55,585 nucleotides of DNA from an uncultured Planctomycetales bacterium (lineage in GTDB: Bacteria; Omnitrophota; Gorgyraeia; Aquiviventales; Aquiviventaceae): contig CAYJRJ010000003.1 in NCBI GenBank assembly GCA_964372775.1, positions 1-55,585 of the forward strand. Reading direction: 5' to 3'. Shown one piece after another: positions 8,293 through 55,585 of the stretch. A program made the position numbers and the translations under genes. Numbering within the stretch: the stretch's first letter is position 1; every line of letters begins with the position of its first letter. The notes beneath the pieces are model-generated. The model did no database searches. It was not told where the DNA came from and was given only the letters and a program-made list of their open reading frames with translations.

Positions 8293-8295
8293 TTC

Positions 8296-9036: not shown

Positions 9037-9037
9037 C

Positions 9038-12661: not shown

Positions 12662-12690
12662 CAGAGTCGCCTTCTTCAGGAGCGCGTGCG

Positions 12691-17589: not shown

Positions 17590-17608
17590 CGAAAACCTCC
17601 TGTTGGTT

Positions 17609-19192
17609 TCATTGTTGATTGGCGATCGCCATGACCTCATCAAAGCTGCCGAGGCCGCTCTTGTATTTGACCACGGCGTGATAGAGTCGTTCGTCAGTCG
17701 GGGTGCTGATCTTCGGCGTCACGACGACCGCCCCGACTCCGCGATCCTTGAGCAGCTGGGTAATCCGGGGCCCATGAAAGCCGCCGGTGATGAGGACCGC
17801 GAGGGGCTCGCCGGTCTCCTGCAGTTTCTTCAGGGTGTTGTTCACGAGCGCCGCATCGCGCTGCTGCGCCACGTCATAGAAGCGCTGGACCGCGCGCAAG
17901 GCTGAGGCGAGTTCTGACAATCCTGTAAATGGCTTGGGGGATAGGCCGTGGTGGGCGAGCTGAGCCTGGAAGAACGTCTCCCAGCCGCTGATGGTCGAGG
18001 ACCAGTCGAGTGTGGCCTGCCGCTCGTACTCCGCAGGCGAGAGCTGGAAATCCAGCAGCTTCTCGACCAGATCAACGTCCTGCTGAATCCGCGTCAGCGC
18101 CTGGCTCTCCGATGTCACGCTCAGCGCGTCCCGCAACTGCGCTGAGGCGGCGTCGAGCTCATCGGCCAGGTCAGTCGCGACGATCGCGTCGCTGGCAGCG
18201 AGGTAGCGCGTGTACCGGCTCAGCGCGGGGTAGGCGGCGAGATCGATGCGGGAGGTTGCGGCCAGTTCTTCGAGCAGCGTGTAGAACTCCACCGGCTTTG
18301 CGGTGCCCTGCTTCATCGCAGCACTCGTGGCCACCAGCCGCTCTAGGTCCGCCTCGCCGGCCTGCTCACTGAGCTGACCAATGAGGCGCTGTTGCTGTGC
18401 GCGCGCTTCTTCCACATTGATCTCCGATTCGAGACGGTGGACCTCAAGAAACCGCTGCAGATGGGGATAGCGCTCCAACGCGCTGCCTGCGCGCTCGGCG
18501 AAGGCGGCGAGCGCCTGCGCATAGTCGGCCAAGTCCAGTTCGTGCGCCTCAAACGCCTTGGCCTTCGCAGCGAGCTCCACCGCCGCCGGGTTCATCAGCC
18601 GAGACTCGAGCTCCTGGCACGATGCCAGGATGCTCTCCAGTAGAGGGCGGGCCGAGGCTCTGATCGACTCGGTCTCGAGAAACACCTTGACGTTCGCATC
18701 GTACAAGGCGCGCTGCTCCACGCCCCAGAGGATGAGCGGGTCATCCGAGACGATGTCCAGATACTCTTCCGCGCTGATGATGCCGGCCTTCAGATATTTC
18801 TCGGCCACCTGCCGGCGATTCTCCGGCGGGCCGTATTTGCGCAGATAGGTCAAACTCGCGTCGCCTTCACTGCCTTCAACCAGGATCAGCTTGAGGCCGT
18901 GGTGCGCAATGAGCTCTTCGAGGATCGTGATGATGTGCTGCTGGCCTTCGTAATTGGTGTGGGCTTCCTGGATGTGGACGACGATCTGGGGGTGCGAGGC
19001 GGCAGCGGCGTTCGGTTCGTGGGTCTCAAGGATGTAGCCGGCTTCTGACGGGATTCGAATATCGGCGGCGCGGGAGACTTCTGAGGATCTCAGGGAAGAT
19101 GCGGGGGATTGCGCGTAAGAAAGCGCTACCTTGCCGGCGCAAATAAAAATGGCCGACCAGGCCAACATACGTAGACGAGCCCCTTTCCCCAT
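17609..19192 (-). CDS. Signal-anchored 527-aa hypothetical protein; possibly TraB/Tiki/ChaN-like (GxxH) fold
   Basis: The ORF track frame is 17609..19369. I place the start at ATG 19192 (MGKGARLRMLAWSAIFICAGKVALSYAQSP) with AGGAGG 9 nt upstream, because the track's upstream 59 codons lie in an AT-rich promoter region. Motifs IVVHIQEAH...LILVEGS and LAVLITGGFHGPRI resemble the TraB/Tiki family, a weak call. Confidence 0.75.
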   Translation of the reverse strand: MGKGARLRMLAWSAIFICAGKVALSYAQSPASSLRSSEVSRAADIRIPSEAGYILETHEPNAAAASHPQIVVHIQEAHTNYEGQQHIITILEELIAHHGLKLILVEGSEGDASLTYLRKYGPPENRRQVAEKYLKAGIISAEEYLDIVSDDPLILWGVEQRALYDANVKVFLETESIRASARPLLESILASCQELESRLMNPAAVELAAKAKAFEAHELDLADYAQALAAFAERAGSALERYPHLQRFLEVHRLESEINVEEARAQQQRLIGQLSEQAGEADLERLVATSAAMKQGTAKPVEFYTLLEELAATSRIDLAAYPALSRYTRYLAASDAIVATDLADELDAASAQLRDALSVTSESQALTRIQQDVDLVEKLLDFQLSPAEYERQATLDWSSTISGWETFFQAQLAHHGLSPKPFTGLSELASALRAVQRFYDVAQQRDAALVNNTLKKLQETGEPLAVLITGGFHGPRITQLLKDRGVGAVVVTPKISTPTDERLYHAVVKYKSGLGSFDEVMAIANQQ

Positions 19193-34300: not shown

Positions 34301-37300
34301 CGATGTCCAGCAGATAGGACCTGAGGTCCGCCGCGCCCTGCGCCTTCGCCAGGTGCTGCGTGTAGCGCCATTGGAGCGCATAGGCCTCCATCTCATTGTG
34401 GATGCGCATGGCGACACTCTTCTTGAACTCGTGGCGGCGATGCGACTCCAGCTCCTGCGGCGGGATGCCCTCAGGGACACTCGGCAGCGCGCGCAGGATC
34501 GACATCGACGCGTCATCGCGTCTGACCTGAGCGCGACTGAGGTGGCTTAGCTCATGCACCAGGTGCGCCTCCACCTCCGCCTGCGGCAGGCCCTCGAAGT
34601 TCGCCAGGTTCACGTAGAGGGATCGGCTCTCGAGTTCCATCGCCAGGAAGGATTTCGAGATGAGCCTGGCGTCGAACGACAGCCGGGGACGCCGGACAAA
34701 TACGCGCAGCAGCTCGAGCAGCTCGTCCGTCTGTGGTGAGCGCGGCAGCCAGCCCTGCTCGATGTTGGCGATCGCGCGCGTCGCTGCGTCGAGCAGGTTC
34801 GCGCGGGCCGTCTGCTCCCGGTCCTCAGCCGCCGTGGGAGGCGATGCGCCCAGCCGTCGAATGATCCACCACCCACTCGCCGCCACCACGAGGGCGCCTG
34901 CGCCAAGACCGACCCACTTCAGGGCTTGCCGGCGCGTCAGACCCGGCGCGCCCGTTGCGGCGGCGCGCTCTCGTCGGCGTCGCTGGGCCCGCGTGTCCTT
35001 CGCTGCCCCGCGGCTCTTCGAGGGCCCGCCCCGCCGGACCCCGCCAAACCCAACTCCCGAACTCGGGTTCACCGCCTGCGCATACGGATGACCCCGGCGG
35101 CCGAGGACGCGCTTCGCTGAATCGTAGTACTGCGCGCCGCCACTCGGGCCGCGGCCGCCCAACCTCCCTCGAATTCCCGGCGTCCCTGAGCCGACGACGG
35201 GACTCAAGAGGATGTCGACAACCTGATCGACCTTCAGGTCCGTGTCCACTCCCTCCAGCTCTCCCACATCGACGCCACCAACGAGCACTCGGACGCCTGC
35301 TCGAAGCCGTTCATGGCCGGGCAGCCCTGTCACCAATTGGTCGCGCAGACCTGGCGCGTACCGATCCAAGCGCTCCAAGAGCTGGCGAAGCGTGCCCGCC
35401 GTAAGGTGCAGGACCCGCGCGCCATTTACCCACCCAGCCAGCGCGGCGGACAGATGCACCTCGATCGATGGTCGTCGGGCGAGCACATCCAACAGCCGGT
35501 ACTGCCGCCACAGCAGGCTGTTCGTCCCCCAGTGCTCTTCGACCGATGCGTTCGCGCGCGCCGCCATCGCCGCGGCTTCCTGGGGCTTGTCCAGAATCTC
35601 GTTGATCGCGCGGGCCGTGTCCTCAATCGATCGCGGCCGATCAAACTGCCCGGTCTGGGCATCGATGCCGACGACGTAGCCGGTGCCATGCTGCGGGTCT
35701 TGCCGAACGTCAATCACCTGCGAAGCCAGAGCGCCCACCCCACTGACGATGACCGGCTTGCCATGCCACATCGCCCCAAGTGCTGCAAGCCCCGAGCCTT
35801 CATTGAGCGATTTCAGGACGATCGCCGACGCCGCACTCTGGAACGCGTTCACCTCCAAGTCGTGCAACTCTCCGACGGTGAGTTCGTCGTAGCCCATCGC
35901 TTGCGCAGCGTCCGCCTGGGCCGCTGAGGGATTCGTCAGCCGGCCGGGATTGATCTGCAAGCGCAAGAGCTCCGCGTGCAGACGCACCCACGCCCACAGC
36001 AGCGCCCGCCGGGGCGAGGCTGGCAACAGCGGCACGACGAGGATGTTCTTCGTGAGCGAAGCCGGCACATGGGCCGCTTGGAGCCCGTCCTCGATATACG
36101 CGCGCAGCTGGCGCAGGGTCCTAAAGGCGTGCGCGTCATCGGGTGCGAGCGGCAACGTGAAGACCAGCCGCGGGAAGGCGTGCGGCTGCTTCCCTGGATC
36201 AAAACGGGCGAGGCGACTGGCCATCACCTGCAGGTAGGCATCGACCACGCCGAAGGGATCCCGCAGCACATCTGGGCGCGCGTGCTGGAGGATCAGCGGC
36301 CGATCAAGCGGCACCTCGTACTTGTCGAGCGTCGCTTCAATGAAGGCGTGGTCCAGCGGCATGTTGCGCGTCCCGTTCAAGTCGATCCCGGGCGAGACGT
36401 CCCAGTGCGAAGCCATGGCGTCCGGCGGGAGGAACTCGGGGCGGTAGACGGTCACGGCATCATACTGGTTGATGAAGGGTCGCAGGATACTCCAGGCGGA
36501 ACGGCTAGGATGCAGCGGCTCATCGCTGATTGCCGTGGCCACATTGCCCTGCCAGATGAACTGCGTCTCAGGAAACACGACGCGGAGCAGCTCGATCATC
36601 CCGGCCGGCTGGTGATCATGGATGACGATGACATCGGGAGCCGGCAGCTGCCGCCGTTCCTTCACGTCGAGGAGCGCTAAGACGTTGGCCACTTGCATCC
36701 GGCGCCAGAGATGGAAGTCACCGTCCGAAAAGCCGTCGGGCAGGCCCTGCAGGGCACGAGTCATCCGGCCCGTGACGTCATGGAAGCGCTGGTGGCGATC
36801 GGCTCCCATCACGAACCACCGCATCCGCAGCCGACGCTGCGGACGCATCTGGCTGAGCGCGTTGTTGAGCGCAATCAGCGGTTCGAGTTGATCCGCGACG
36901 CTGCCGCCGGCCCCTGAGGAGTTGAGGTGCCAGACCTCGACGTGCGGCTTGCCCCGGCCGAGCAGTGGAGTCACGCTGCGCGCGCGCAGCGCCAATCGGA
37001 CCATGCGCCCTACCCCGACCAGCCGACGCCATATGGCGAGATCCGCGTACGTCACACGACGTTCCTCGATGGGTTCAAGCTCCAAGTCCTCCGAGGGTTC
37101 GACGAACACGCCCGGGCGCGCCCGCAGCTCGACCAAGCGCCGCTCGGTGGCCAGCTGGCGCAAGGCGAGCTCCACGTCCACAGGATCCATCCGACGATGG
37201 AGCCGCTCGCTCAACTGTTGCGCCACGACATGAGGGGTGTAGGCGACCAGCGGCCGAGTGGTCAGGAGGGAGAGAATCTCGTCACGTAACTGTCCACTCG

Positions 37301-40300
37301 GCAGCTCTTCTTCGGGCACGACATCAGTGTCTGGACTGAGGAACTGGAGCGATCGCAAGAGGAGGTAGACCTTGCGCAGGCGGTCTTCTGGGGTGGGCGG
37401 GGAGTCCTCAGTGAGTGGGCGGGGGGATCGCAACATCTCCGCCACGGGACGCAGGAGATCCTCCAGCGCCTGGAGGACCTGTGGGGCGTCCGCGGCGCCA
37501 TGCAACCAGTCGTGCACGATTGGCGGCGCGCGCTGCTGGAGCTGGGCGCGGCTGAGCCCCTCGACCTCCGCGAGAATCGCTTCGAGCTCCACGCGGTCGG
37601 TGCTCAACACATCGACGAGCAACGTCTGGGTGTCGCGCGCCTCGCCCAAGAGCCTGCGCACGGCGGGATGCGACAGCAGCGTCTGAATGGTCTGCGCACG
37701 CCGGCCCACAATCCGCAGCATCGCGGGATGACCGCCGGCCGACGGCACCTCCACCACTCCTTCTGCCAGGGTGAGCGTATCGGGATGGAGCAGGGCGGCG
37801 GCAAATTGGTCCACGCGCTCCGGCGCAACACTGCTGGCGATTGCGAGGGGAGCCGCGCGTCCTTGGGTGTGGCGCGCGAGCATGAGACTCAACCTCATGA
37901 ACGCCGAGTCCGCCCCAGGATGCGGCGGTGACCAGGTGTAGAGCGCGTGCCACAGCGCCTCGGCGGAGGGATCCATCGTGACCTGCCCTTCGCGCAGTTG
38001 CCGAATGAGGCCGTCGAGGAGGTGGCGTGTCGGTGGCGTCCACCACCGCACCCACTGCGCTTTGGTTGCGGTTAAGAGATCCAGGAAGACCGACCGTTCC
38101 TTCAACGCGAGTCGTCGCCCCATCCACCACTGTCCGAGTCGCTGCGTGAAGGAAATCGGCGGGCGATGCAGCGATGGCACCTGTCCGGCGTTCTCAAAGA
38201 ACGCGTCCACCAGGTGATTGACCGTCCGCGGCGCGGTCCAGAACACGCCATGCCCCGCCCTCGGTACTTGAACAAGACGAATGCGATCCCCAGGATTCGC
38301 CTTCGGCGCGCGCTGTTTCAGCGCCTCGATGAGCGCGCCATGCCACGCGATGATGGCGGGATTGCCGACCAGCGTATCCTCGTCACCGAGGAGGATGAGG
38401 AGATTGCTGGTCTCGCCGATCGTCGCCGCGAGCTGCTCGGGCGCCCACTCGGCGCCGGCGGCCAGCATCGCCTCATACGCCTCGACCACGATGTGTGGCT
38501 GGACCCGCTCAAAGATCGGCCGCAGGTGTCGCTCGTAGACCGTGGGGTCGCCGGCGTGCAAGAACCGCCCGTACACCCATCGCGCGATCCATGCCTGCGC
38601 GATGATCACCCGCCGCCACACCACCTCAAAGAGCCCGAACCGATGCAACGCCAGCACCAGGGGCCTGATCGCTTTCGTGAGCCGCCGTACCGTTCGTTGA
38701 CCCAGGATCATATCGCCTGCCAGCGCAGGCGTGGAGAGCACCGCCGATGAGATCCGATCCGGCACCAACTCCCACAAGGCCAGCGCCGCCATCGCACCCA
38801 TGCTGCTGGCCATTACGCGCACCGTCGCACCGGCCGCCACTTCCTTCACCATGACCGACTGCGCATCGCCGGCCACCCGCTGGAAATAGTCGGCGCGCGT
38901 CGCCTGACCCAAGCTCGAATGACCATGGCCCCGCAGATCCACGGTGATGACCCGCCAGCCCTTCATGACGAAGTGCTGGACCTGGTGGTACCACACCGTC
39001 TGATCCATGAGATAGCCGTGGAGCAAGAGAAGCGTGGGCTGGTCGCGATCCTCCGGGCCGAAGACGGTATAGTGGATGGCAGCCCCGTCCGGGGCCAGCA
39101 GCACTTCCCTGCGGCTGGCGACAAACAGCTCGTGGCCAAGCTCAGCCGCCGAGCCGAATCGCACCAACTGCTGGAGGGCCACGCGCACCGCTTCGAGGGG
39201 CTCGTGCAAGGCATGCGCGATGGCCTCAGCGCTGAACACCTCATCGCGATGGCCCGCGAGGAACGCGTGCACCTGCTCGACCGGGGGTGCGACCGCCAGC
39301 GCGGCCTCCTGGGCCAGAAATGCGGCGTGCTCCTCTTGGGTGATGTCGCCCCCGCTGACCACAATGACGAGCCGCTCGCTCTTCGCCAGCTGCTTCTCGT
39401 GCACCGGATCCAGCAGCGCGGCTAGCGCAAGCGCGCCGCGCGGGGGAATGCGCACGCCGGCCTCTCGCCACAACAGCTCCACGGCCTGGCGCACGGACTC
39501 TTTGGAGACGGTGATGATCGGCGCGCCGTGCGCCTGGGCAAGTGCCGTGGTCCACGGGTCGCGCTGAGGGTTGCCTGCCAGCTCCACTCCAATGAGCTGC
39601 CGACGCTGCCCTTCCAGCGCCACGGCGATCCCTGCAAGGTTAGCGCCGGTCTCGACCGGTATGACGAGCGTGTCGAACGTCGGGACCTCTTGTTCAATCT
39701 CCAGGGCGAGTGTGCCTCCCCCCATGATCCGCTGCTGATCGTCGGGATCGAGGAACACACTGTTTGCGGTCGTGAAGGCCGCCTCAACGGCGCGCTCGCG
39801 GGCCTGCCCATAGGAAAGGAGCGGTGCGTCCTGCACATGGGTGATGAGCGTGGCTTCAAGTTTCTGCACGCGCTGGGCCACTCGATCATCGAGGACTGCG
39901 GCGGCATAGATCCGAAGCCGAGCGTGGAGCTGGCGCGCCGCCTGGGCCAGCGCCACCGCCTCGTCGCCATCACGGGCCACTGCGACAACCGTCGTCCGAT
40001 TCCAGGTCACCGCCTCGACGCCGCGTCCCAATTCGATGAGGCGCGCGAGCGCTCCCCGCATCGCAATGGAGCCGGTCGGCAACTGGTCCTCCCGCTTGAG
40101 CCACACCTCCCGACCCAGAAGCGCGCTGAGCTTCTCCGAGCGAACGATCGGGCTCGGCGTTGCCAGATAATGGCCAAGCTGGTCCCTTGCGCCTTCCAAT
40201 GTGGCTCGAGTGATCGCAGTGCCAGCGACGGAGTTGCCACCCTGGACCACCGGCGGTACCATCGCAAGCGAGAGCCAGGCCGCGGTAGCCGACGCCCCGA

Positions 40301-43300
40301 GCGCCCAGTGGAGCACCCAGAGGAGTCCGATCGCCAACGTGATCACGGCTGCGACACCAGCCTGCAGCCGCTCCTCGCGAATCTGGTCGGTGAACGTCCG
40401 CCGCATCTCGCGCCACCAGGAGCGATCCAGCGCTCGACGTGGCGAAGTCGCCAGCGCGATCAGCGTCGCGAACGCATACGCCCCGATCAGTTCCGTCACG
40501 CGTCGGGCCTGTCGCAGCATTGCGCGTATCTCATCCAGCGCACGCGCCTCGACCTGGCTCTGATACGGCGCATCGAGGATCTGACTGAGCTCGCGCTGTG
40601 AGATGGTCGGTACGTAGGTGCCCTGCGGCTGGTCCTTCTTCCCTGCGACGGACGCACCGAGGGCCTCGAGCCGGTAGATGACCCATTCGTGAGCATCCAG
40701 TATGTCATCGGGTTCGGCATCCCCCGTCATCCTCACCAGTTGATAGCCGAGTGCTTCCACCTCACGCAATGCCGTCTCCGTGCGCAATCGCTCTCCTGAA
40801 TCTCCGTCATCGTACCAACCCACAATCAAGTAGCCTCCGGGCACCAGCGTCCTGACGACCTCGTGCACGATGGCCTTCTTTTCGTCGCCCGTAATGGACG
40901 GGGCGGAGAGGACGCTCATCATGACCACCGCGCTCAGCGAGTGGTCCGGCAGCCCGCTGCGCTGGAACGCCGCATGCGCTGGCGACGCTTGACGGCCCTG
41001 CGCGCCTGTGGTATCGTCGACGATACGGAGGACGTGATCCGATGCCAAAGAGCGCGGTGAAGTTATCGACGAGGCAGGCCCAACGGTTGCTGGAGCAGCT
41101 CCCACCGGTCGTGAAGATTCATCTGGTGCGGCGCTGGGAACAGCAGACGTGGCCTGTGCGGTTACGCCAGCTCTTGGCGCGGATCGATCGACGCCTCGCA
41201 ACGTCTCCTGGACTTGCCCGAACGGCGCGGAAGAGTGTGGGCCCGGCTCGTCGGGCATTCCATGCTGCGCGCCGTCATCGACACTAACGTTCTCTTGAGC
41301 GGCTTGTTGGGTGGCCGCACGCGTCCTCTCCTCGGTGCGTTGATCGCCCGTCGGTTCCACCCGGTGGTCTCCCCCCTGCTCCTCGAAGAGTTGCTCGATG
41401 TCGTGAGTCGGCCCGCGTGGCGTCGTCTGCTCACTCACGCTGATCTTGGCGACTTGCTGACGATCCTCCATAGCGCGACTGCGCTCGTCATCCCCACCGA
41501 ACATCTCACGGTCTGCCGCGACCCCGAGGACAACGTCCTGCTTGAGTGCGCCCTCGCCGGTCGTGCCGACTTCCTCGTCACCGGAGACAACGACTTGTTG
41601 GTCCTCGATCCCTTTCGCGGCATCCGTATCCTGCGTCCGCGCGAGTTCCTCACGCTCCTGTCCTGACTTCGCGGCGGGCGCTGGCGCCGGCTCGTGGGCC
41701 GGGGCTGGCCCCGTCTCGGGAGTCGCGTCAAACGGGGCTGGCGGCGGCTCTGATCCAGAGCTGGAGCGCGTCGGCGGTTCGCTCTGACGAGCTTTGGGGA
41801 AGCCGCTGACGGTGATCAGCGTGCCTGTGGTGACTCCACTCGACGTATGTTCGCTCGGTTGCGGCTCGAGCTCGCCAGCTCTCCGGTCGCTGGCGCGGTA
41901 CACCACCCGTTGCCCCAGGGACTCTACCGAGAAGTCCAACCCATTCGCGTTGGCGGCCTGGCGCGCCAGCGGCAGCCCAAGCCCATGCAACACTGAGGGC
42001 CCGCGGGTTGAGGTCGTGGTCCCAACCGGCATGCTTCGCGCAATGTCAGCGATCCCTGGCCCTAAATCCCGCGCGAGAAGCTCGAAACCGCGTCGCCCGC
42101 CCTCTTGCTGCTCACGGATGAGGATGAGACCTGGCCCGCGCGCATGCGTGAAGTTCTTCGCGAGCTCGCCCGCTACGAAGCCTGGCGCATCCCCGCTGAG
42201 CCCCAGGCTCTGCGCAAAAAGATCCACAGCCGCCAAAATTTCCATCGCCCGCTGATCTGAGCCGTCAGCGGGATAGACGCGATAGCCGAACTCCTGTTCG
42301 AGGCGCGCCCTAGCAGCGGCGACCTCCTCAGATGTAGCCACCGGGGGCAGCAGCGTATCCATCAGCGCACGCGCCTCGATCTGGCGCTGATTCGCGGCGC
42401 GTGAGGAAGCGCTACCCTCAGAGGCCAACAAAAATGCGGCGAGCGCCTCATCGAGCCGTGTGATCGCATCGGTGACGGCGCGCCGCTGGGCGTCGGCGTC
42501 ATCGCGCGGCGCGCTGAGGAGCTGCTGGAGCACCTCGAGGAAGCGATCGCGCATCGCGTCACTGACCGAGGCATCCTCACCCCACCGCTCGCGCAAGGTG
42601 GCGGCGAGATCCTCCACCCCCACACGCCAGACATGCGGCGGCTTGTCGGTCATCAGCTCATACAGCATGTGAGCTAATCCGTAGGCCCAGCTGGGCGACC
42701 GATCGGTGTTAGCTACGTAGTCAATGAATCTCATGGTTGGCGAAGCGGCTTCCCCGGCGACGAGCACATTTTCGATCTTCGGGCTGAAATGATGAATGCC
42801 AGCTGATGCCACTTCGCTCATGCCAAGGGCCAGCTCTCGCGCCAGGCGCATCCGATCCGCCCAGGAGGGCTGTGTGTGCGCGATCCATTGGTCCATGGGC
42901 TCGCCGTCCACCCACGACCAGCGCAGCAGCGTCCAGGGGCGGCGTTCTTCTTCCATATCCTCATGGCGCCTGAGCGCGTCACCGGTGTAGTTCTGCGCCA
43001 CCAGCATCGTGTGGCCCGCTTTCCGATCGTCGGCGCGCACATCGAGCGGTTCGGTCGCCTCCAATACCACAAGGCGAGCCGGTGGCGGCGTCAAACGCCG
43101 GCGCACATCCGCGACGCGCTCGGCGCTGAGGTCTTCGTGCGGCACCTTGGGAATTTTGCCGAACCACTGACGGCCCTGCGCATCCAGCAGGACCACTTGC
43201 ACGCTGTTCATCCGCGCCCCGAGGACGTCGAGCAGATGGTAGCCCGCCCGCTCAAGCGGCGCGCGCAGCACGGCCTGCCACGCCGCACGCTGCAGCGGCA

Positions 43301-46300
43301 TCGGCGGCAGAGCCATCGCGCTGACCGGCGTCCCGGACGCCTCGCGCAAGGCGCGCCAGGCGCGCAACTCGATGAGCGCTTGCCCCATCGCCGCGCGCTG
43401 CTCGATCACCGCGTCAGGCGGCAGCGCCATCAGCTCCCACAGCAGCTGCGCGAGCGCTGCGCGTTCGGCATCCGTAACGGTCGGATCAGCGCCCCACCGC
43501 TCGCGCAAGGTGGCGGCGACATCCTCCTCACCCACGCGCCAGACATGGGGCGCGCTGTCGGTGAAGAGCTGGTAGAGCATGCGCGCCAGGCCTGAGGTCC
43601 AATGAGGGCGCGTGTCGTCGTGGCCGATATAGTCAATCTGCAGAAGCGACATGCGCCCGTGCTGTTCGCTGACGAGCACGTTTTCCATGACGGGGTCATT
43701 GCGGCGAATCCCGCGGCCAGCTAGGGCAGCGGTGGATGCGACGAGCTGTTCGGCAAGCTCCAGGCGCTGCATCCACGAGGGCTCGCTCGCCGTGAGCCAT
43801 GCATCGAGCCGCTGGCCGTCCACCCACGACCAGCGCTGCACGGTCCATGGCCTGCTTTCGTCGTCCATCCGCTCCTGGCGCCTGAGCGATTCCCCAGAAT
43901 AGTTGTGCGCAAGAAGATGCGCGTGACCCGCTCGTCGATCGTCGGCGCGCACATCAAGCGGCTCCACCGTCTCCGCCGGCACGATGTGTGCGGGGACGGG
44001 CGTCAACCGTCGCCGCACCTCTTCTACACGCACCGCCGAGAGATCCTCGCGCACACCAATCGGAACCTTCCCGGCCCACACGGTGCCGGCCGCATCGCGC
44101 ATCCGCACGACCACGCTATCCACCCGCACGTCCGCCACCCATTCAAGGTCATAGCCCGCGCGGCGCAGCGGCTCGCGCAGCACCAGCAACCAGGCCGCTT
44201 GACGGAACTCTTTCGGCGGATTGCGGCCGCTCGGCGGCAGGCCGCCGAGACCAAGCGCTAGAGCCGGAACCAGACTCAGCCATGAGACGTCCGTCGCTGA
44301 TTCCTGAGCGATAGCAGATATCGTCTGTGAGGGAACGATATCTGATATCGAGGGGAGGGCGGCTGCCGCCGAGGCCAGAGCGAGCGAGCCGGCCAGCGCC
44401 GCCGGGGCGAAGAGCGCGAAGACGCCGGCCCGCGTGCCACGACCACGGCCCCGGCGATCGGACGCGCCTGGTGAGGAGCCACTTCGGCCGGTCGGACCGC
44501 CTGGCATGGGGGCCGCCCAGCGCTCCTCGGCGTAGTCTTCAATCATGCGGGCGACGCGCTGCGGCCGCTCTAACACGAGCACGTGCCCGTTGAGCATCCG
44601 GCCCGGATTCGTGAAATACTCCCAGGGAGAGTTGATCTCATCGGCGATGGCCTGCGCCTGATCGTCCGGGATCAGCGCATCACCTTCGACAAGCACCGTG
44701 ACGACGCGGCGGCCCGCGGAGTCGTTGTTGAACTTACGCATCAGCGGACGGGCCCCGAGGAACCGTTCCCACAGCTTGGCCTTCAACCAGATGTAGACCG
44801 CCGCATCGATCTCCTGGCCAATATGCCACGGACGGAACGTGCCGCCTGATGCTACCACCCGCCTCTGCGCGATCTTGAGCAACGGCTTTGAAATCAGGCC
44901 AGCGGAGGCCAGAGGCGCCAACATGCCCAGCCACCAGGTGTCCGGGAAGCGTGCTTTGGTTTGCTCGCGGACCGTATCCGCCAGCGCGAGCCACCCTCGC
45001 ACCACCAGCCCAGGCACGCGGCTCTGGATCGCCAGCCACGCGAGGGGATAGGGTTTTGCCAGCAGGACAAGTGACTGAAGCGGCGCTTTCAAGAGCCGCT
45101 CGAGGAGTGCCGGCCCAGGCACCGGCAGCGCGTCAACACCAAGTTTGACGACGCTGTGAAAATCGCTGATCGACATCGACGGATCAAATGGCGTGATCCG
45201 CATCACCCCGCGCACCAGGTGGAGCACTCGATCCTTGGGGGCAGCCGCGTCATCCTGGAGCACGACTTCCTGCCAGATCGTGTCGGCGATCGAGTGCGTC
45301 ACCCAGAGGATGCCGTCCTCCTGACCGAACCGCTTGATGATGGCCCGGCGCTCCTGGGCGTAGCGCTCCATCAGGTGCAGCCGGGATTCCTCGATCGTGT
45401 CATAGGGGGAGCTGCGTCGAGGGGCGATGACGGTGTAGTCATCCTTCAGGAGCTCCATCACCAGATCCCACGAGAGCTGGCCGGCCGCCCCGTGATCAAG
45501 TCCGATGACCGGCTTCCCTGGTTTGCCCTTTCGAAAGTCCACGATGACTTGGCCGACAATCGCGCCATGGTCGTCCAGGACGTCCACGGGCTCGGTTTCC
45601 CAGGTCCGCGACTCCTCATCGAGGTAGAGCCGTACCTTGTCGCGGCCGAGTTTCTCGCCCAGCTCGTGGATGATGCGCCCGGGCGTCTCTTCCACCGAGC
45701 CCTCGGGAGCGAGCACGCGTCCTGCTGCCATGCGCTTGTGCTTGATCAGCCCGCCTGTCACCACCATGATCGCCTTGCGGGTCCTCAGGAGCCGCCGTCG
45801 CGAGGCGGTCACGCGCACGGTGCCCGACTCATCGACCATCACGCCGTACGGCGGCACGTCGCGCCCCCTGCGCAGCAACGGATCCCGCGGGTGCAGGCTG
45901 GCGGTCTCCCCTCCCTCGCCCAGGGCGAGGAGTGTGAGATCCATACGGCGCCACCCGACCTCTTCGCTGTAGCGCTGCGCTTCCTCCTTGGCGTGGCGCA
46001 TTGCCGCACGCTGGGTCTTGAACGACCCCCTTAAGATGCGATGGACCTGCGGCGCCACAGGGAGCTTGGACAGGAAGGTCTCATGAAACACGCGGTAGTG
46101 GCTTCCCGCGTGCGAATCCGGCACCATGCGCTCATCGGTAAAGTAGATCTCCCACTTCGACCAGTCGGCGTCACGGGTCGCGAGCAACGCATAGATCGGC
46201 GCAAACGTTCGGCCGCTGGCGATTTGGAGGCGGAACACGCCGCGCGCGCGAATCGCCTCGTCGGCCGCTGTGGTGATGTCATCCACCACATCCCTGGCGA

Positions 46301-49300
46301 CCTCCCGCCCGTGGAGACGTTCCTGCACGCCAAACGGCAGTTCGTACCCGCCATTGCCGTTCGAAGCCTCAGGCGCCGGCGACTGGAGTCGCGGGCTGTC
46401 GGAGCGGGAAATCCCCAGCGGGAGATGGAAGCGCTCCTGGATGATGTAGAGCGCGCGGACCAGATCGGGAAGACCCACCGCGTTAGGCGCGCGGGGTTGG
46501 ACGACGTACTGCAGCAGCCTGAACAGGTGCAGGACCGCCATCGCCATCGGCCCAGCCACAGAGTAGGCCACGATCATTGCGCTGAGGTACTGGCCCTGCT
46601 GGACAAGGTCGATTGGTGCGCGCCAGGCGTGGCCGAGCAGTAGCAGACCCGTCAGCCCAATCCACGCCAGCGGTGCGCTGGCGGCCACGAGGAAGGTCAA
46701 CCACGAAGTCGGATGCTCCGCGATCCAGCGGCTCTGGACATAGGAGCCGGTTGACGACACAAGACTGCGCTCCACCGGCACGCCGAGGGCGACTGCGACC
46801 ATCTCATGCAGGGCCTCCTCGATCCAACTGAAAGGCAGGAGGAGCGCCATGGTGGTGGGGCTGTGCATGTCGGTTGACGGACCGAGCGAGGGCGCCTGGT
46901 AGTCGCGCGGGCGAAACGCCGGCTCTTCCATGACGCGTTTGAGTTCCCGTTTGACGATGACGGATTCACGACGGGTCAACGGGCGGCCGCCACGTGTCAG
47001 GTACAAGGAGTTGTCCGCCAGCCCGCCGCGCCACCAGTCATGCCGCGTGATAGGGATGATGTCTTCCACATTGAGCCCAAACGAACGCAACACATGGAAG
47101 ATGCGCACGAGCAGGCCCGGGTAATCACCGGTCTCCATGTCCAGGCGCGTCCAGCCGTCGTTCCGGCGCATCCGGATGCGCGTGGATGCCAGGCCCTCGG
47201 GACGCGTCATCACCCGCGGCAGCACGTCCTCGATGGAGCGCGCGCCGTTGAGCAATTCCTGCAACTGGGCTTCCAGGTCCTCGACGCGGCCCACACCCTC
47301 CGCGCCCACCCGCGCGGTTTCCACGGCGAAGCGGATCAAGACCAGCGGTTCGGCTCCCCGCGGCGGCCGCTGCTCGATGTGCGGATGCATGTCATGCACG
47401 GTCAATCCCCACCTGTACAGCAGGGCGATGACGGCGTCACCTAGGCCGGGCCTGTCACCCCGCAGCACCACCACGAGCTCCGAGATGCCTCTCGGATCCG
47501 CCGACGGACGAACCGCGAGCACCGCAGAGAGACCGCCGGTAAGCAGCCGATGGACGAGGCGAACCTCCTCCACATCCTGGCCGCGCCGGCGCAGCGAGCC
47601 GGGATCGTTGGCCACGAGATTCGCGTAGCGGCGCGCGGCCTCCGGTGAGACATCAGGCGCGACGTCGTGGAGCACGGCAACCATCTCCCGCATCCGTTCG
47701 CTCCTGCGCGGCACCCAGGAATCCGGATCCGCGACGGCGGACGCATCGATGCGGTAGAGTGCTTGCAGCTCCTCGTAGATCGGCACCGCAGCCACCCGTC
47801 CACGCTGGCCGTCCACCGCGGCGATGGCCAAGAGCAGCATCGTCCGGTCGAGGTTGCGCCGCATGACGGCGTTCAGGAAACGCACGACCGCCGCCGGGGT
47901 GGCGGTGTTGACTTCGCGGCTCCAGGACTCCAGCAGCAGGAAGTGCTCCACCGCCCAGCGCACATCCGCCCCCCGGCCCCGGTCGGACGCCAGCCCGTAG
48001 CGGGCCAGCAGGTCTCGCAGAAACGCGCGGCGGACCTTCGGATGACGCGCCGCCGTCACGGTGAAGAACAACACCGCCAGCCGCAGCGGCACCCAGAGCC
48101 GTGCTCCCGCCGCGCGGATGCGACGGAAGACCGGCGCAGTGCCGAGTTTCATGGCCCGCTCATCTGCCCGCAGCTCTCGGGTGTGGAACCACAGCATCCG
48201 CTCCAGCAGGCGGACGTCCGAGAAGATCTGGGCCCCAACGGTCGCTCGCCGCTGCCGGTCAAATGTCGGCATGTACTGGACGGCATCAAACCCTGGAATA
48301 AACTCATCCAGGATGCCGATGACTTGCATCCGCCGCAGCGTGTAATACAGCGACTCGCGAGCCGAGACCAATTGCACAAATTGCCGGTAGCGGGCCGCCG
48401 CGAAGTTCGCATCATGTCGCATGGTCTCCTTGAAGGAGCCCGCATGCTCCTGCAGCGCATCAAGCAGATCGGGTGCGAGCCGCAGGTTGTCGTGGGTGGG
48501 GTCGGCGGTCAAGAGCAACAGCTGCAGATAGAGCTCAGGATGCTGGGCCAGCGCCGCCGGATCGGCACCACGGTCCAGCGCCACTTCGTAGCGCTCCTGG
48601 TAGCTAAACCCGTCTTCGAGCGTAAACAGCCAGCCGGTGCGCTTGATCAACACGAATCCCTCTGGCATACCCTCACGCGTGACCTCCTCCACCGCGGACG
48701 GCGAGGCCTGCTCGACCGATCGGCGGATCACCTTGTAGGTCACCAGGAAGAGGGCCTCGGCATGCCGGTAGTAGTCCTCCATCAGCGCCGCCGCCGCATC
48801 CTGATCCCGGACCCGCTGATACGCCGGCAGCGCCTGCGCCACGCGCACCTGCAGTTCCCTTGTCAGCGTCGTGCCGAAGCCGCCCACCGCTTCCATGGCG
48901 CCGCGCACCTCTTGCAGGAAGTTGAGGGCGCGCTCCGCCTGATCAATCTCCTCCTGCCGCAGCAGACCGCGCTCCACCAGCCCCATGAGCACCGGCTCGT
49001 GAATGCCCTGCAGCTTGGCGAACCAGCGGATATAGTCGTATTCCCGCAATCCGCCGGGGCCTGACTTCACATCCGGCTCGTGCGCGAAGAGCTTCCACAT
49101 GCCACGCTGTCCGCTCGCATCCGGCCCTTGGTATCGCTCGCTCCATTCCTTGGACAGCAGCTCGATGACGCGCCCGCGCATGGTGGCCCCAGCCAATCCG
49201 CTCACCTGAGGCTGGCTTAGGAACTCCTGCCACTGTTGCCGTCGAGCGTTGATGAGCTCCCGATCACCGGCCACGTAGCGCATGTCCTGCAGGTGGTTGA

Positions 49301-52166: not shown

Positions 52167-52238
52167 CGCCGCCGGCGCGGGAGTGGTGGAAGCCGTCAGC
52201 GGTGTCTTGGCTTCGCCTTCAAGCCTCCGGGCGAGCGC

Positions 52239-52267
52239 TTGACGCGCAGAGTCCTCTACGGTATCCT
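52239..52267 (+). promoter_or_regulatory. Cassette 1 promoter TTGACG-17-TATCCT
   Basis: Counted directly. AGGAGG at 52275-52280 follows. Confidence 0.5.
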
Positions 52268-52292
52268 TGACCACAGGAGGTTGTGTGCCACC

Positions 52293-52556
52293 GTGCGACG
52301 TGTTCAGATCTGGTGGGATGACGAGACGGCGGAGCACCTTGCCAGGCACGGGGTGGCGCCAGAAGAAGCGGAAGAGATCTGCCGGGTGCGCCCCTACATC
52401 TTGCGTACGCGGCGGGGCCGTTACCTGGTCCTTGGATACACTGGAGCGGGGCGATATCTGACTGTCATCTTGGAGCCAGTGGGAGGCGGCCGGATGAAAA
52501 TCATTACGGCGCGAGCGATGACGCCGCCTGAACGCCGACGGTATCTGGAGCGTTAA
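52293..52556 (+). CDS. brnT: BrnT-like (DUF497) type II toxin
   Basis: VRRVQIWWDDETAEHLARHGVAPEEAEEI...GRYLVLGYTGAGRYLTVIL...KIITARAMTPPERRRY. Taken with a GTG start; an in-frame TTG at 52281 is an alternative. The ORF track frame is 52131..52556. Confidence 0.7.
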   Translation: MRRVQIWWDDETAEHLARHGVAPEEAEEICRVRPYILRTRRGRYLVLGYTGAGRYLTVILEPVGGGRMKIITARAMTPPERRRYLER

Positions 52557-52559
52557 CCC

Positions 52560-52793
52560 ATGAAAAGTCATATTCCAACGTTCAAATCCTTGGACGAGGA
52601 GCGCCGATTTTGGCAGACGCACGACGTCACGGAATTCTGGTCTGAACTGACCCCGGTGACTCTGAAGTTTGGAACGTCCAAGCGTGCGCGGTCGATTCAG
52701 TTGACCGTCGTTGAGTTGCGCGCCCTCCAAAGCCTCTTGAGGAAGCTTGTGACCGCTGAACGACCGCCTGCCGAATCCCACCGGAAACTGTAA
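52560..52793 (+). CDS. brnA: BrnA-like antitoxin
   Basis: MKSHIPTFKSLDEERRFWQTHDVTEFW.... It starts 3 nt after the brnT stop, in the toxin-first order typical of brnTA. Confidence 0.7.
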   Translation: MKSHIPTFKSLDEERRFWQTHDVTEFWSELTPVTLKFGTSKRARSIQLTVVELRALQSLLRKLVTAERPPAESHRKL

Positions 52794-52799
52794 TCCGAA

Positions 52800-53060
52800 C
52801 TGCCGCACCTCCCGCCAGATCGCGCGCCAGTCGGTCGAGCCATCCGGCGTGAGCCACTGCCGCCCGAAGAGCCGGCCGATCCCCGCAATGAGGTGGAGGC
52901 CGCTGTGGGCGAACTTCGTGTCGTCATCCGCCCATATTTTTTCCAATGTCCCGCGCAGCCAGGTCCACGCCTGCCGCGCCCAGGCGAGCAACTGCGGCAC
53001 TGATGGCACGCCGCCGTAGACGTCGCCAGTCGGAGCAGCCGACCCCGGCGTTGGCTGGTC
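52800..53060 (-). repeat. Conserved 5' coding fragment, copy C (261 bp)
   Basis: 259/261 identical to copy B. Encodes ...QPTPGSAAPTGDVYGGVPSVPQLLAWARQAWTWLRGTLEKIWADDDTKFAHSGLHLIAGIGRLFGRQWLTPDGSTDWRAIWREVRQ. Confidence 0.95.
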
Positions 53061-53079
53061 CGCCGTCGGCGCGGCGCTG

Positions 53080-53109
53080 TTGACACGAGTCGTCGACGTG
53101 GCGTATACT
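53080..53109 (+). promoter_or_regulatory. Cassette 2 promoter TTGACA-18-TATACT (CGTCGACG palindrome in the spacer)
   Basis: Counted directly. The predicted TSS is only a few nt before ATG 53120, so the mRNA is leaderless or nearly so. Confidence 0.5.
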
Positions 53110-53119
53110 TTTGGACGTG

Positions 53120-53374
53120 ATGATTGCGCGAACGAGATTGTTTCCGAAACTTCTCCAACGCGACTACGACTGGGCGTTTTCCCGCTATCCACAGCTCGCG
53201 AGACGCTACCCGAACCAGTGGGTCGCGTTCGCGAATCGCCGAGTCCTGGCTGCGGGACCCCGTCTCTCTCGCGTGCTGGCCAAAGCTCACGAGGAAGTTG
53301 ATTGGCCGCATATCCCCCACCTGTTTGTCGAGTCGGGAATCCACGTGTATCCGGTGAATGCGCATCGCGCTTGA
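53120..53374 (+). CDS. DUF5678-like small protein
   Basis: MIARTRLFPKLLQRDYDWAFSRYPQLARRYPNQWVAFANRRVLAAGPRLSRVLAKAHEE.... The ORF track frame starts at TTG 53111. Confidence 0.6.
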   Translation: MIARTRLFPKLLQRDYDWAFSRYPQLARRYPNQWVAFANRRVLAAGPRLSRVLAKAHEEVDWPHIPHLFVESGIHVYPVNAHRA

Positions 53375-53798
53375 AATCGATCGCGTCCCGGATCCCCAAC
53401 GATTGCGTGCTCGTCGACGAACCTTCCTCTACCGGCTCTGGGCGCGCATCCGATTTCGCCAGCCTCATGGATGGAGTGATTACCACCTGGCGATCCTCGA
53501 TACGGGTGCCCCCTACTCGGTGGTCCCCCTCTCGTTGTGGCCGAGTCTGGATCGTCAGGAATTTGACACGCTGCCTCTGCGTGGGCTGGTGCCTGGCGCG
53601 AGCGTGCAACTCGACGCGACGCTGGCCAGGCTCTCCGCTCAACTGCTGGATGCCGCGCACACCTCTCCTCGCCTGCCGCTCTGGGCCATGCTGGTCCACA
53701 CGGACAGCGTGCCGTTGATCCTTGGCTGGGCTGGCTGTCTGGACCGAGCCAAGCTGACCCTCGACGGACCCCGTCATCGATCCTGGCTTGAGTTCTGA
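53358..53798 (+). CDS. Retropepsin-like (clan AA) aspartic protease
   Basis: HLAILDTGAPYSVVP (DTGA signature)...PLILGWAGCLD. It overlaps the upstream gene by 17 nt. Confidence 0.65.
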   Translation: MRIALEIDRVPDPQRLRARRRTFLYRLWARIRFRQPHGWSDYHLAILDTGAPYSVVPLSLWPSLDRQEFDTLPLRGLVPGASVQLDATLARLSAQLLDAAHTSPRLPLWAMLVHTDSVPLILGWAGCLDRAKLTLDGPRHRSWLEF

Positions 53799-53816
53799 GG
53801 CCCGCACCCCTAACGC

Positions 53817-54077
53817 CTGCCGCACCTCCCGCCAGATCGCGCGCCAGTCGGTCGAGCCATCCGGCGTGAGCCACTGCCGCCCGAAGAGCCGGCCGATCCC
53901 CGCAATGAGGTGGAGGCCGCTGTGGGCGAACTTCGTGTCGTCATCCGCCCATATTTTTTCCAATGTCCCGCGCAGCCAGGTCCACGCCTGCCGCGCCCAG
54001 GCGAGCAACTGCGGCACTGATGGCACGCCGCCGTAGACGTCGCCAGTCGGAGCAGCCGATCCCGACGTTGGCTGGTC
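53817..54077 (-). repeat. Conserved 5' coding fragment, copy B (261 bp)
   Basis: Exactly 1017 bp (339 codons) from copy C. Confidence 0.95.
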
Positions 54078-54102
54078 GGGTATCGCGTCCTCCTGGGGTG
54101 GC

Positions 54103-54131
54103 TTGACACTCCCCTCGACGGATGCTACACT
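54103..54131 (+). promoter_or_regulatory. Cassette 3 promoter TTGACA-17-TACACT
   Basis: Counted directly. GAGGGAGG at 54147-54154 precedes ATG 54161. Confidence 0.5.
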
Positions 54132-54160
54132 TCCCGCTGTGGGAACGAGGGAGGAACTCA

Positions 54161-54409
54161 ATGGACGATCTCCTCGAGAAGTACGTAAGCGTTGATCCGC
54201 AAATCCACCATGGGAAGCCGTGCTTTCGAGAGACCCGGATTCCGGTGTATCTCGTCCTTGAGCTGCTTGAGGGCGGCGTTCCCCCGGAAGCAATCGTCGG
54301 AAAAGATTACTATCCTGAATTAAGCCTCGATCATGTGCGGGCAGCGCTTCATTTTGCCGCCCAATACGCGAAGAATCAGGAGTATATATCCTTCGAGCGA
54401 CCTGCTTGA
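54161..54409 (+). CDS. DUF433 antitoxin-like protein
   Basis: MDDLLEKYVSVDPQIHHGKPCFRETRIPVYLVLELLEGGVPPEAIV...YPELSLDHVRAALHFA. The ORF track frame starts at 54122. Confidence 0.75.
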   Translation: MDDLLEKYVSVDPQIHHGKPCFRETRIPVYLVLELLEGGVPPEAIVGKDYYPELSLDHVRAALHFAAQYAKNQEYISFERPA

Positions 54410-54417
54410 AGGCGCCG

Positions 54418-54756
54418 ATGAGGTTTCTTGCCGACGAAGATGTTCCTTGTAAGCTCCTCGTCGCGCTGCGAGCTGCCGGCCACGATGCGGTGAGAGTTGA
54501 CCAAGCCGGCTCCGACCAAGCAATCGCCCACCGCGCCAAAGCAGAACGAAGGATTATCGTCACCCTGGATAAGGATTTCACCAACAGGGCGCTGTACCCA
54601 CCCAGTGAGTTCACCATTATCCATATACGAATCCACCCCCCGTACGCCAGGGACCTCATCGAAGCCTTCATGCGACTCTTAGATGTGTTGCCCTCGGAGA
54701 AATTCCACGGGCTGATTGTCCTCCAAAAACTTGGCTCGATCCAAGTTTCGGAATAG
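54418..54756 (+). CDS. DUF5615 (PIN-like) toxin-like protein
   Basis: MRFLADEDVPCKLLVALRAAGHDAVRV...IIVTLDKDF.... It is visibly lower in GC than its surroundings. Confidence 0.75.
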   Translation: MRFLADEDVPCKLLVALRAAGHDAVRVDQAGSDQAIAHRAKAERRIIVTLDKDFTNRALYPPSEFTIIHIRIHPPYARDLIEAFMRLLDVLPSEKFHGLIVLQKLGSIQVSE

Positions 54757-54830
54757 GCCCACGCGCGCCGCAGCCCATCCCACAGCTGTTCGGTCGACGA
54801 CCCGCCGCCGTAGGCGTGGCCAGTCGGAGC
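54757..54830 (-). repeat. Conserved 5' coding fragment, truncated diverged copy A' (upstream part only)
   Basis: Encodes APTGHAYGGGSSTEQLWDGLRRAW, versus APTGDVYGGVPSVPQLLAWARQAW in copies B and C. It shares gccgccgtagRcgtSgccagtcggagc. Confidence 0.7.
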
Positions 54831-54840
54831 GGGGGGTGTC

Positions 54841-54869
54841 TTGACAGCGTCGAGGACCCGTGTTACGCT
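54841..54869 (+). promoter_or_regulatory. Cassette 4 promoter TTGACA-17-TACGCT
   Basis: Counted directly. The predicted TSS coincides with GTG 54876 / ATG 54879, so the mRNA is leaderless. Confidence 0.5.
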
Positions 54870-54875
54870 TGAGCC

Positions 54876-55163
54876 GTGATGAGACGAGCGAACGGCCGCG
54901 TCAAGAATGGCACTCTGCGTGGGCGCATCTCGACCAACCCCAAGATCTGCGGGGGACGGCCCTGCATCCGCGGGCACCGCATCCCCGTAGAAGTCGTGCT
55001 CGACTTCCTGGCCTCGGGCGTGGCTCCCGAGGAGCTCTGTGGTCCCCGCTATTTCCCCACCATCACGCGCAAGGACGTGCTGGCCTGTCTTGCCTACGCG
55101 GCCCAGCGCGTCCACCGCGAAGTCGTCCTCAGGACGGAGGGACCCTCGGCCGCCAGGCGCTGA
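54876..55163 (+). CDS. DUF433 antitoxin-like protein (second copy)
   Basis: ISTNPKICGGRPCIRGHRIPVEVVLDFLASGVAPEEL...ITRKDVLACLAYA. Confidence 0.75.
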   Translation: MMRRANGRVKNGTLRGRISTNPKICGGRPCIRGHRIPVEVVLDFLASGVAPEELCGPRYFPTITRKDVLACLAYAAQRVHREVVLRTEGPSAARR

Positions 55164-55526
55164 ATGCGCTTTCTGGCGGACGAGTCGCTCACCGGTCAAA
55201 CTCCGACGTTCCTGCGCGCGCTCGGGCACGACGTCCTGACGCTCCACGCGCTCGGGCGCGTGGGCGCCACCAACGGCGAGGTTCTCGCGTTGGCCCGTGC
55301 GAACCAGGCGATCCTCATCGCCGAGGATCGAGGATTTCTCAGTCTCCCCACCTACCCGCTGGGTACTCACATCGGCATCATTGTGCTCAAGATCCGAGGT
55401 GCTGGTGAGATCGACCCGGTCCACCGCCATCTTGCCCGCGCCTTGGTCCGTTGGTCGGCCGCCGATCTGCGTGGCAACCTGTTGATCATCGACCGCCGGA
55501 AGGCCCGTCTGCGCCGAGGCGCCTAG
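55164..55526 (+). CDS. DUF5615 (PIN-like) toxin-like protein (second copy)
   Basis: MRFLADESLTGQTPTFLRALGHDVLTL...ILIAEDRGF.... Its ATG overlaps the TGA of the upstream gene (TGAATG). Confidence 0.75.
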   Translation: MRFLADESLTGQTPTFLRALGHDVLTLHALGRVGATNGEVLALARANQAILIAEDRGFLSLPTYPLGTHIGIIVLKIRGAGEIDPVHRHLARALVRWSAADLRGNLLIIDRRKARLRRGA

Positions 55527-55530
55527 CCTT

Positions 55531-55585
55531 CGCACATCCCCCCAGATCGCACGCCAGTCGGTGGAACCGTCGCGCGTGAGCCACT
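55531..55585 (-). repeat. Conserved 5' coding fragment, copy A (runs off the right edge)
   Basis: Encodes ...WLTRDGSTDWRAIWGDVR. Compared with copy B, 5 codons differ in 44 nt, 4 of them synonymous. Confidence 0.85.

Follow-up and report, generated by a model that had tools for sequence, protein, structure and literature searches.

The 55,585 nucleotides of contig CAYJRJ010000003.1 (assembly GCA_964372775.1, an uncultured bacterium of the Omnitrophota), referred to below as the window, carry on the minus strand a giant open reading frame (ORF) of at least 12,085 codons, and five predicted type II toxin-antitoxin (TA) operons are located inside this ORF on the opposite strand. The giant frame is free of stop codons across all five, and the host-gene fragments that separate four of them lie at distances that are multiples of three. 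The same arrangement is found in at least ten other loci, mostly from Omnitrophota. We consider it likely from these sequences that the TA cassettes are translationally transparent, i.e. that their insertion against a translated ORF is non-polar.

The giant ORF and its nested cassettes

The minus-strand frame contains no stop codon from position 19329 to the end of the window, and its 5' end lies outside. The signal from GC content at third codon positions (GC3) is unbroken from 19.3 to about 52.2 kb, and GlnD-like, 6-phosphogluconolactonase, PALP, alpha/beta hydrolase and TreT-type glycosyltransferase domains are found by Pfam on the sense strand, which together show that the ORF is real. It constitutes a chain of metabolic enzyme domains.

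Cassettes 1–4 (Table 1) are compact two-gene operons at the upstream end of the visible ORF, with Pfam matches to BrnT and a CopG-type protein, to DUF5678 with a 146-aa partner, and twice to DUF433 and DUF5615. A fifth, the PIN cassette, lies about 11 kb deeper in the ORF. On one side of it is a weak HATPase_c-like match, on the other the C-terminal half of a methyltransferase-like domain. The matches extend over nearly the full length of the models, except for the CopG-type antitoxin (model positions 2–51 of 79) and the 146-aa partner of DUF5678, which has a weak retropepsin-like match alone and no significant family match. The toxin domains BrnT, PIN_3/TIGR00305 and DUF5615 (PIN-like) each adjoin a CopG-type, a DUF433 or a small upstream antitoxin-like gene, as in type II TA pairs; among the cassette genes of the window only the PIN toxin is named by NCBIfam. 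Consensus sites resembling σ70 promoters are found directly upstream of cassettes 1–3 and of the PIN cassette, and none is predicted for cassette 4, the prediction being by consensus match only. The array region has four promoter-like sites against 0.6 expected, and three are on the plus strand, each directly 5' of a cassette. The inserts are 630–760 nt long and flanked by host-sequence duplications of 26–261 nt. No terminal inverted repeats were found at the cassettes, no short direct repeat was found at the immediate flanks of the PIN cassette of the window, and a plasmid BLAST of the array gave no match.

Table 1. Positions of the giant ORF, the nested TA cassettes and the repeats of host sequence in the window.
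Feature	Position	Strand	Remarks
Giant ORF	19326..55585	-	At least 12,085 codons; open to window end; 5' end outside window
32-nt direct repeats	40536..40567 and 42363..42394	-	91% identical; 1827 nt (3x609) apart; bracket a module holding the PIN cassette
PIN cassette	~40985..41680	+	Promoter-like site 40989-41017; antitoxin 41042-41287; PIN_3/TIGR00305 toxin 41262-41666
Repeat copy A (ADDDTKFAH...WQAIW)	52041..52170	-	Joined to ORF body; homology to B and C begins only at 52170
Cassette 1	52171..52799	+	Promoter-like site 52239-52267; AGGAGG 52275-52280; BrnT 52293-52556; CopG-type antitoxin 52560-52793
Repeat copy B	52800..53060	-	261 nt; 99% identical to C
Cassette 2	53061..53816	+	756 nt; promoter-like TTGACA-18-TATACT 53080-53109; DUF5678 53111-53374; 146-aa partner 53358-53798
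Repeat copy C	53817..54077	-	
Cassette 3	54078..54758	+	Promoter-like TTGACA-17-TACACT 54103-54131; DUF433 54122 (or 54161)-54409; DUF5615 54406-54756
Repeat copy A', truncated (APTGHAYGG...RRAW)	54759..54848	-	N-terminal part only; in phase
Cassette 4	54849..55530	+	DUF433 54876-55163; DUF5615 55164-55526
Repeat copy D	55531..55585	-	Cut off by window end

The giant frame is uninterrupted across the cassettes

An earlier account of this DNA made from the letters alone, here called the preliminary description, had noted that the giant frame has no stop over 3.4 kb although it runs antisense to eight genes. This holds: between 52167 and 55585 there are 0 stops in the giant frame, whereas the other two minus frames contain 27 and 33, and the plus frames 18, 27 and 24. 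The window's own genes have, per codon, antisense stop densities of 0.0088 (codon-aligned phase), 0.023 and 0.033 (the two other phases), from which about 16 stops are predicted in the array. Synonymous shuffling of the eight array genes, which had been proposed as a check, gives a joint probability of 6e-6 to 6e-5 for the absence of stops.

The repeats are in register with the frame. The tryptophan codons (CCA on the plus strand) that end the conserved core are located at 52053, 52815, 53832 and 55542, all coordinates divisible by three, and the spacings of 762, 1017 and 1710 nt were confirmed as multiples of three by comparison of the repeat family. The truncated copy A' is also read in the same frame, 777 nt from C and 933 nt from D, so that all four consecutive spacings preserve the phase. 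The preliminary description further counted six of the ten TA gene starts at coordinates divisible by three; the count is correct, but taken alone it is weak evidence (binomial P about 0.08).

Stronger are the genes themselves. All ten TA genes contain 0 of the triplets TTA, CTA and TCA at the offset at which the giant frame reads them, the four out-of-phase genes included, as had been claimed, whereas in each gene at least one other offset has 3–7; only two further pairs of gene and offset reach zero, namely DUF5678 at offset 0 and its 146-aa partner (X146) at offset 1. Stop avoidance hence tracks the giant frame and not the frame of each TA gene. The two paralogous DUF433/DUF5615 pairs are stop-free at different offsets, each fitting its own placement, and neither gene of cassette 3 shares the phase of the giant frame, which nonetheless has no stop across the two. 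Counted by cassette block together with the spacers, stops number 0 in the giant frame throughout and 3–10 in each of the other minus frames. These statistics support selection for an uninterrupted giant frame. An example of a peptide that the giant frame would encode across a junction in the array is AIWREVRQALGVRASELKPG.

The fragments between the cassettes also behave as coding sequence. Copies A, B/C and D differ by 10–24% and have distinct junctions, and read in the giant frame A and B differ at a proportion of 0.29 of synonymous (pS) and 0.045 of nonsynonymous sites (pN), a pN/pS of about 0.15, with 0.06 for D and B. The low ratios suggest that the copies are translated in the giant frame. 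B and C are, from their near identity, a recent duplicate.

Nested cassettes in other genomes

A survey of related genomes for frame preservation, also suggested in the preliminary description, was made by examining loci with PIN homologues for any antisense frame open across the gene. In the first 44 loci, 37 had stops in all three antisense frames, and the closest relatives were nested in very long ORFs. In total at least ten other loci, mostly of Omnitrophota, contain antisense TA cassettes inside stop-free ORFs of 4–20 kb at 37–55% GC, with flanking repeats in phase. Full cases of nested PIN cassettes are L104, L132, L287, L289, L290, L291, L293, L296, L307 and L317, and partial cases are L131, L285 and L310, the last being a complete chromosome where the 5' end of the nested case is masked by N. 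Nested in these long ORFs are about 15 PIN cassettes together with several of other TA families (DUF433/DUF5615, MazF-like, DUF4258/DUF2283). In the nested loci the host frame has 0 stops, and the other antisense frames have 120–600. The host ORF occupies the whole contig in L104 (3,988 codons, 47% GC), has 3,522 codons and two cassettes in L132, and covers the whole 20-kb locus with about 6,500–6,800 codons in L287, L289, L291, L293 and L317. Sense-strand domains of these host ORFs include AlaDh, HATPase_c, TPR, methyltransferase and HAD. L106 and L112 were rejected as nested cases, their signal being due to masked N runs and a high-GC antisense artefact.

A close parallel is L293, where an ORF of about 6,800 codons at 46% GC harbours in its interior (9000–13500) an antisense array of at least five TA cassettes from three families, among them three with PIN, one with DUF433/DUF5615 and one with DUF4258/DUF2283. 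Direct repeats of 55–91 nt, 93–98% identical between the closest copies, are spaced by 1431, 870, 846 and 612 nt, and nine of nine cassette genes have 0 stops at the offset read. As judged from sequence, the architecture is the same as that of the window at 52–55.6 kb. In-phase repeats also surround cassettes in L132 (798 and 819 nt), L131 (1470 nt), L285 (810 nt) and L307 (735 nt).

Between loci, the giant proteins show hardly any resemblance outside the cassettes, and this suggests that the cassettes are mobile modules and the hosts mosaics. No homology was detectable between the flanks of the PIN cassettes of the window and L132. A HATPase_c-type region is located upstream of the nested PIN in three loci, as a clear Pfam match in L132 (aa 543–654), a weak one in the window (41700–42398, E 0.05), and by eye in L285, in the N-terminal part of the ORF at 7793–10750; it may be due to chance or be a travelling module, the flanks being otherwise unalignable.

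The PIN of L131 is 66% identical to that of the window, and beside its cassette, at 2037–2599, a MazF/PemK-like toxin with a small upstream partner is found; both cassettes are antisense in one open frame, enclosed by 79-nt repeats 1470 nt apart. In L104 a GC-rich, partly palindromic motif of 20–32 nt occurs at 541, 2869, 4216, 5311, 6235, 7117, 8230 and 9487, with all spacings multiples of three. In translation it gives approximately AAPAG-type linkers, the PIN cassette is flanked by two copies, and some plus-strand copies resemble intrinsic terminators. That the motif marks further plus-strand cassettes found no support, the other plus-strand ORFs having no Pfam match.

The open antisense frame as a property of the PIN cassette

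The phase in which the nested PIN gene is read is fixed per clade: the high-GC cassettes of the window, L285 and L131 all have offset 0, and 12 of 12 low-GC cassettes have offset 2. At offset 2 stops arise mainly at tyrosine codons, and 11 of the 15 nested PINs are without tyrosine, with four tyrosines in all 15 together; the 151 non-nested PIN homologues have a mean of 2.4 tyrosines each, and only 3% have none. The catalytic acidic residues are invariant in an alignment of five nested copies. With tyrosine almost lost and the catalytic residues kept, both strands must be under constraint, and the open antisense frame appears to be a heritable trait of the PIN/antitoxin cassette and not only a filter acting on insertions.

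Bridge ORFs between host genes

In two non-giant Bacteroidota loci, L305 (3615–4364, minus) and L314 (9691–10482, minus), the PIN cassette is located antisense between two co-directional permease genes, and its antisense frame forms a separate ORF of 249–263 aa. An 8-nt overlap joins the ATG of this bridge ORF to the stop of the upstream gene, an ATGA joins its own stop to the start codon of the downstream gene, and in L314 the bridge begins with a copy of the permease N-terminus. A bridge ORF in the omnitrophotal locus L286, also non-giant, lies in the gap between two paralogues and overlaps neither. Such ORFs are what would be expected of a frame that keeps ribosomes on the host transcript, with translational coupling retained and Rho-dependent polarity avoided. 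The in-frame fusion with a giant ORF is the same property.

Proposed mechanism and alternatives

We propose that five type II TA operons have settled inside the giant ORF on the opposite strand, and that ribosomes on the giant mRNA would translate each cassette, in reverse complement, into a linker. Such reading is possible because each cassette is a multiple of three relative to the flanking repeats and no stop is present in the frame. The arrangement would be kept by selection: a stop should truncate the protein and uncouple translation from transcription, and this uncoupling might be polar on tens of kb downstream, polarity then being the presumed selective agent. The cassettes could in this way live within giant ORFs, or between the genes of an operon, without harm to the host. 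The flanking fragments of host genes would be in-phase duplications, the probable source of which, judged from the repeat structure, is Campbell-type homologous recombination that inserts and excises units made up of a fragment and a cassette. The TA genes may also be of benefit, e.g. by stabilising the giant gene against deletion. The preliminary description had named two causes, translation through the cassettes and survival of frame-preserving insertions only; both are supported by the statistics of the window and by the recurrence in other genomes, and they are inseparable here and not mutually exclusive.

In a GC-rich genome antisense frames are often open, and one might hold that 3.4 kb needs no explanation. 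The longest non-coding open runs elsewhere in the window are indeed 822, 611 and 535 codons, each codon-aligned antisense of one gene, and six of the ten TA genes are in that phase. The number of stops expected and the shuffles speak against this, as do the four out-of-phase genes that are stop-free only in the frame read, the counts per cassette block and the same finding over 10–20 kb at 37–49% GC in other loci, with hundreds of stops in the other antisense frames; the preliminary description, which had judged chance unlikely, is borne out, and we regard chance as extremely improbable. An artefact in which strain variants with different cassettes beside one repeat were concatenated into an array would fit a window that ends inside repeat D and a B and C that are 99% identical over 261 nt. 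It is nevertheless very improbable, since A, B/C and D are diverged and have distinct junctions, the adjacencies of cassettes and repeats go beyond a simple variant bubble, and equivalent arrays occur in independent assemblies, one of them a complete-chromosome record.

The preliminary description labelled the repeats as 5' fragments and implied a gene start near 52166. If the gene started at or after copy A, the open frame upstream could be a passive legacy of the cassettes and of earlier ORF contexts that is not translated at present, and in agreement with this some PIN loci (L339, L184 and L182) have retained a stop-free frame antisense to the PIN gene although host genes are lacking nearby on that strand, and the residues of the giant protein that have homologues begin about 157 aa after the beginning of copy A. 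Such a start is doubtful because copy A is shorter and misses the first 48 codons found in B and C, its vicinity shows no Shine-Dalgarno motif paired with a start codon, the frame runs off the window, and the repeat-cassette arrays of L293 and L132 are interior to giant ORFs; the fragments are probably internal repeats. In addition, the four spacings and the junction to the gene body share one phase, which without selection has a chance of about 1/81 or less, the inter-cassette spacers and promoter regions are stop-free as well, and the internal PIN cassette cannot be bypassed in this manner, all of which makes a late start unlikely. Alternatively the antisense-encoded peptides might be functional parts of the giant protein, with dual coding selected for the product. 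The antisense translations are 30–48% identical between loci and the reading phase is conserved within clades, but similarity is expected as a by-product of the conservation of PIN and antitoxin, no Pfam domain is found in the antisense reading, the two clades use two phases that give unrelated peptides, and unrelated TA families are tolerated alike. Selection for the peptides themselves is quite improbable.

Several points weigh against translational transparency of the cassettes or limit its generality. Translation through the cassettes is something that we infer from sequence, and the PIN loci with an open frame but no host gene show that the property can persist without current use. The window ends inside repeat D, where the assembly therefore probably broke, and the array may continue upstream. 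With B and C so nearly identical, cassette 2 may be polymorphic, being present in only a part of the population, or may be able to circularise, and assembly from short reads could have put the two copies in the wrong order. Neither a recombinase nor a defined recombination site was identified. A survey of 80 distant DUF5615 homologues gave no nested case, and the evidence that the property extends beyond the PIN family is confined to the window, L131 and L293.

Other features of the window

Only residues 157–455 of the giant protein were matched in an exhaustive HMMER search, and this domain is also present inside other giant proteins, one of which (L081) is without a homologue of the TA genes of the window. 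For the repeat fragment and about 150 residues after it no homologue was found by word-indexed protein searches, a DNA pattern scan of genome contigs, a metagenome scan with alignment of the fragment, or HMMER. The methyltransferase-like domain just downstream of the PIN cassette (40398–41000, minus frame) covers only positions 48–95 of a 95-position Pfam model, and the boundary of the cassette may be where the N-terminal half was lost.

GC3 of the giant frame falls from about 0.8 to 0.56–0.67 across about 1.8 kb (28600–30400), where no plus-strand gene is evident; the stretch may be a recently acquired sense-strand module. The giant protein has four copies of the motif RGHxYAG with a Gly-rich stretch (e.g. 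GIGFGGV), at about 35096, 30152, 28961 and 28391 in the minus frame, and two of them flank a 570-nt module as 84-nt repeats with 85% identity. The motif may mark junctions between modules or sites of processing.

Directly downstream of the giant gene, ordinary gluconeogenic enzymes are found within much longer ORFs, PEPCK in one of 1,207 aa (9038–12661, minus) and a class V FBPase in one of 1,650 aa (12691–17643, minus). The closest relative of the former, in an Omnitrophota metagenome-assembled genome (MAG; L001, 1713–5569), also forms part of an ORF of at least 1,285 aa; apparently, metabolic enzymes are fused into very long proteins in this lineage. The PEPCK-containing ORF and the PIN toxin have their best matches in one Omnitrophota MAG of 65% GC (46 and about 60% identity, respectively), which also carries L285; judged by best hit alone, the nearest relatives of the window would be high-GC Omnitrophota.

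Long plus-strand ORFs antisense to the giant gene were rejected as genes, showing no Pfam match and being ordinary high-GC antisense ORFs. The open run of 822 codons at 14557–17022 (plus), antisense to the FBPase-containing ORF, is unusually long and has no Pfam match, and is probably an ordinary codon-aligned antisense frame of high GC.

Relation to known systems

Rickettsia palindromic elements are about 100–150 nt long, palindromic and gene-less, and are translated as an extra peptide segment; Ogata and colleagues are said to have described them in 2000 as in-frame selfish insertions in protein-coding genes. Like these, the inserts of the window keep the frame of the host and are stop-free in it, but they are intact two-gene TA operons of 630–760 nt on the opposite strand, most with a predicted promoter, and not short palindromes. 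Chromosomal (super)integrons contain arrays of TA cassettes together with an integrase and attC sites. The window resembles them in its co-oriented, compact and repeat-separated TA cassettes of several families, most with a predicted promoter, for which a stabilising role against deletion is plausible, and differs in that the separators are coding fragments of the host gene under purifying selection and the array is antisense within one ORF. No integrase domain was found in Pfam scans of the large ORFs, and attC sites are excluded only indirectly, by the coding nature of the separators, no dedicated attC model having been used.

Orphan modules of Rhs and CdiA are located downstream of the main gene in the same orientation and are not read through. 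As in these, diverged fragments of a large gene flank the two-gene modules of the window, which fits stacking by homologous recombination; here, in contrast, the modules are antisense and within or upstream of the main ORF, the main frame continues, and no Rhs or CdiA domains were found in Pfam scans of the large ORFs. Inteins and self-splicing introns are mobile elements that make their own insertion phenotypically silent, and the cassettes are functionally analogous, except that they would be silenced by being translatable and not by splicing. Nothing in the window matched an Rfam family, and no Pfam intein or Hint domain was found in the giant frame over the array.

The hosts are, like the giant genes already known from Omnitrophota, very long ORFs (10.1101/2023.11.21.568195; 10.64898/2026.06.07.730766). 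The ORF of the window differs from them in being a chain of metabolic enzyme domains. Antisense, nested or PIN/TA genes inside giant genes are not mentioned in these two papers, and the literature searched, full text included, did not describe TA genes that are nested in giant ORFs or antisense to them.

Significance

If the proposal is correct, translatability would join splicing (introns and inteins) and tiny in-frame repeats as a third means by which a mobile element neutralises its own insertion, and complete operons would be readable as harmless protein on the reverse strand. Bona fide protein-coding genes would, moreover, share a conserved antisense overlap of about 230 codons, to our knowledge an unusually long one for bacteria. 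A broader possibility, on which we are evenly divided, is that a lineage of TA cassettes has evolved translational transparency, comprising at least PIN/antitoxin and probably DUF433/DUF5615, BrnTA, MazF-like and DUF4258/DUF2283, in which a stop-free antisense frame is kept and tyrosine is purged from the toxin. These cassettes would insert into ORFs and operons against transcription without polarity, with the giant genes of Omnitrophota as their main habitat, and the in-phase repeats would be handles of a recombination-based, frame-preserving cassette exchange that may contribute to the assembly of giant mosaic ORFs from modules.

Gene callers miss nested TA genes or split giant genes, and both classes are therefore probably mis-annotated in Omnitrophota. 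The arrangement also raises the ideas that TA modules pin giant genes against deletion, and that head-on transcription ties the expression of the TA genes to that of the giant gene. For the host, the cassettes provide evidence at the sequence level that giant bacterial ORFs are under strong selection for uninterrupted translation.

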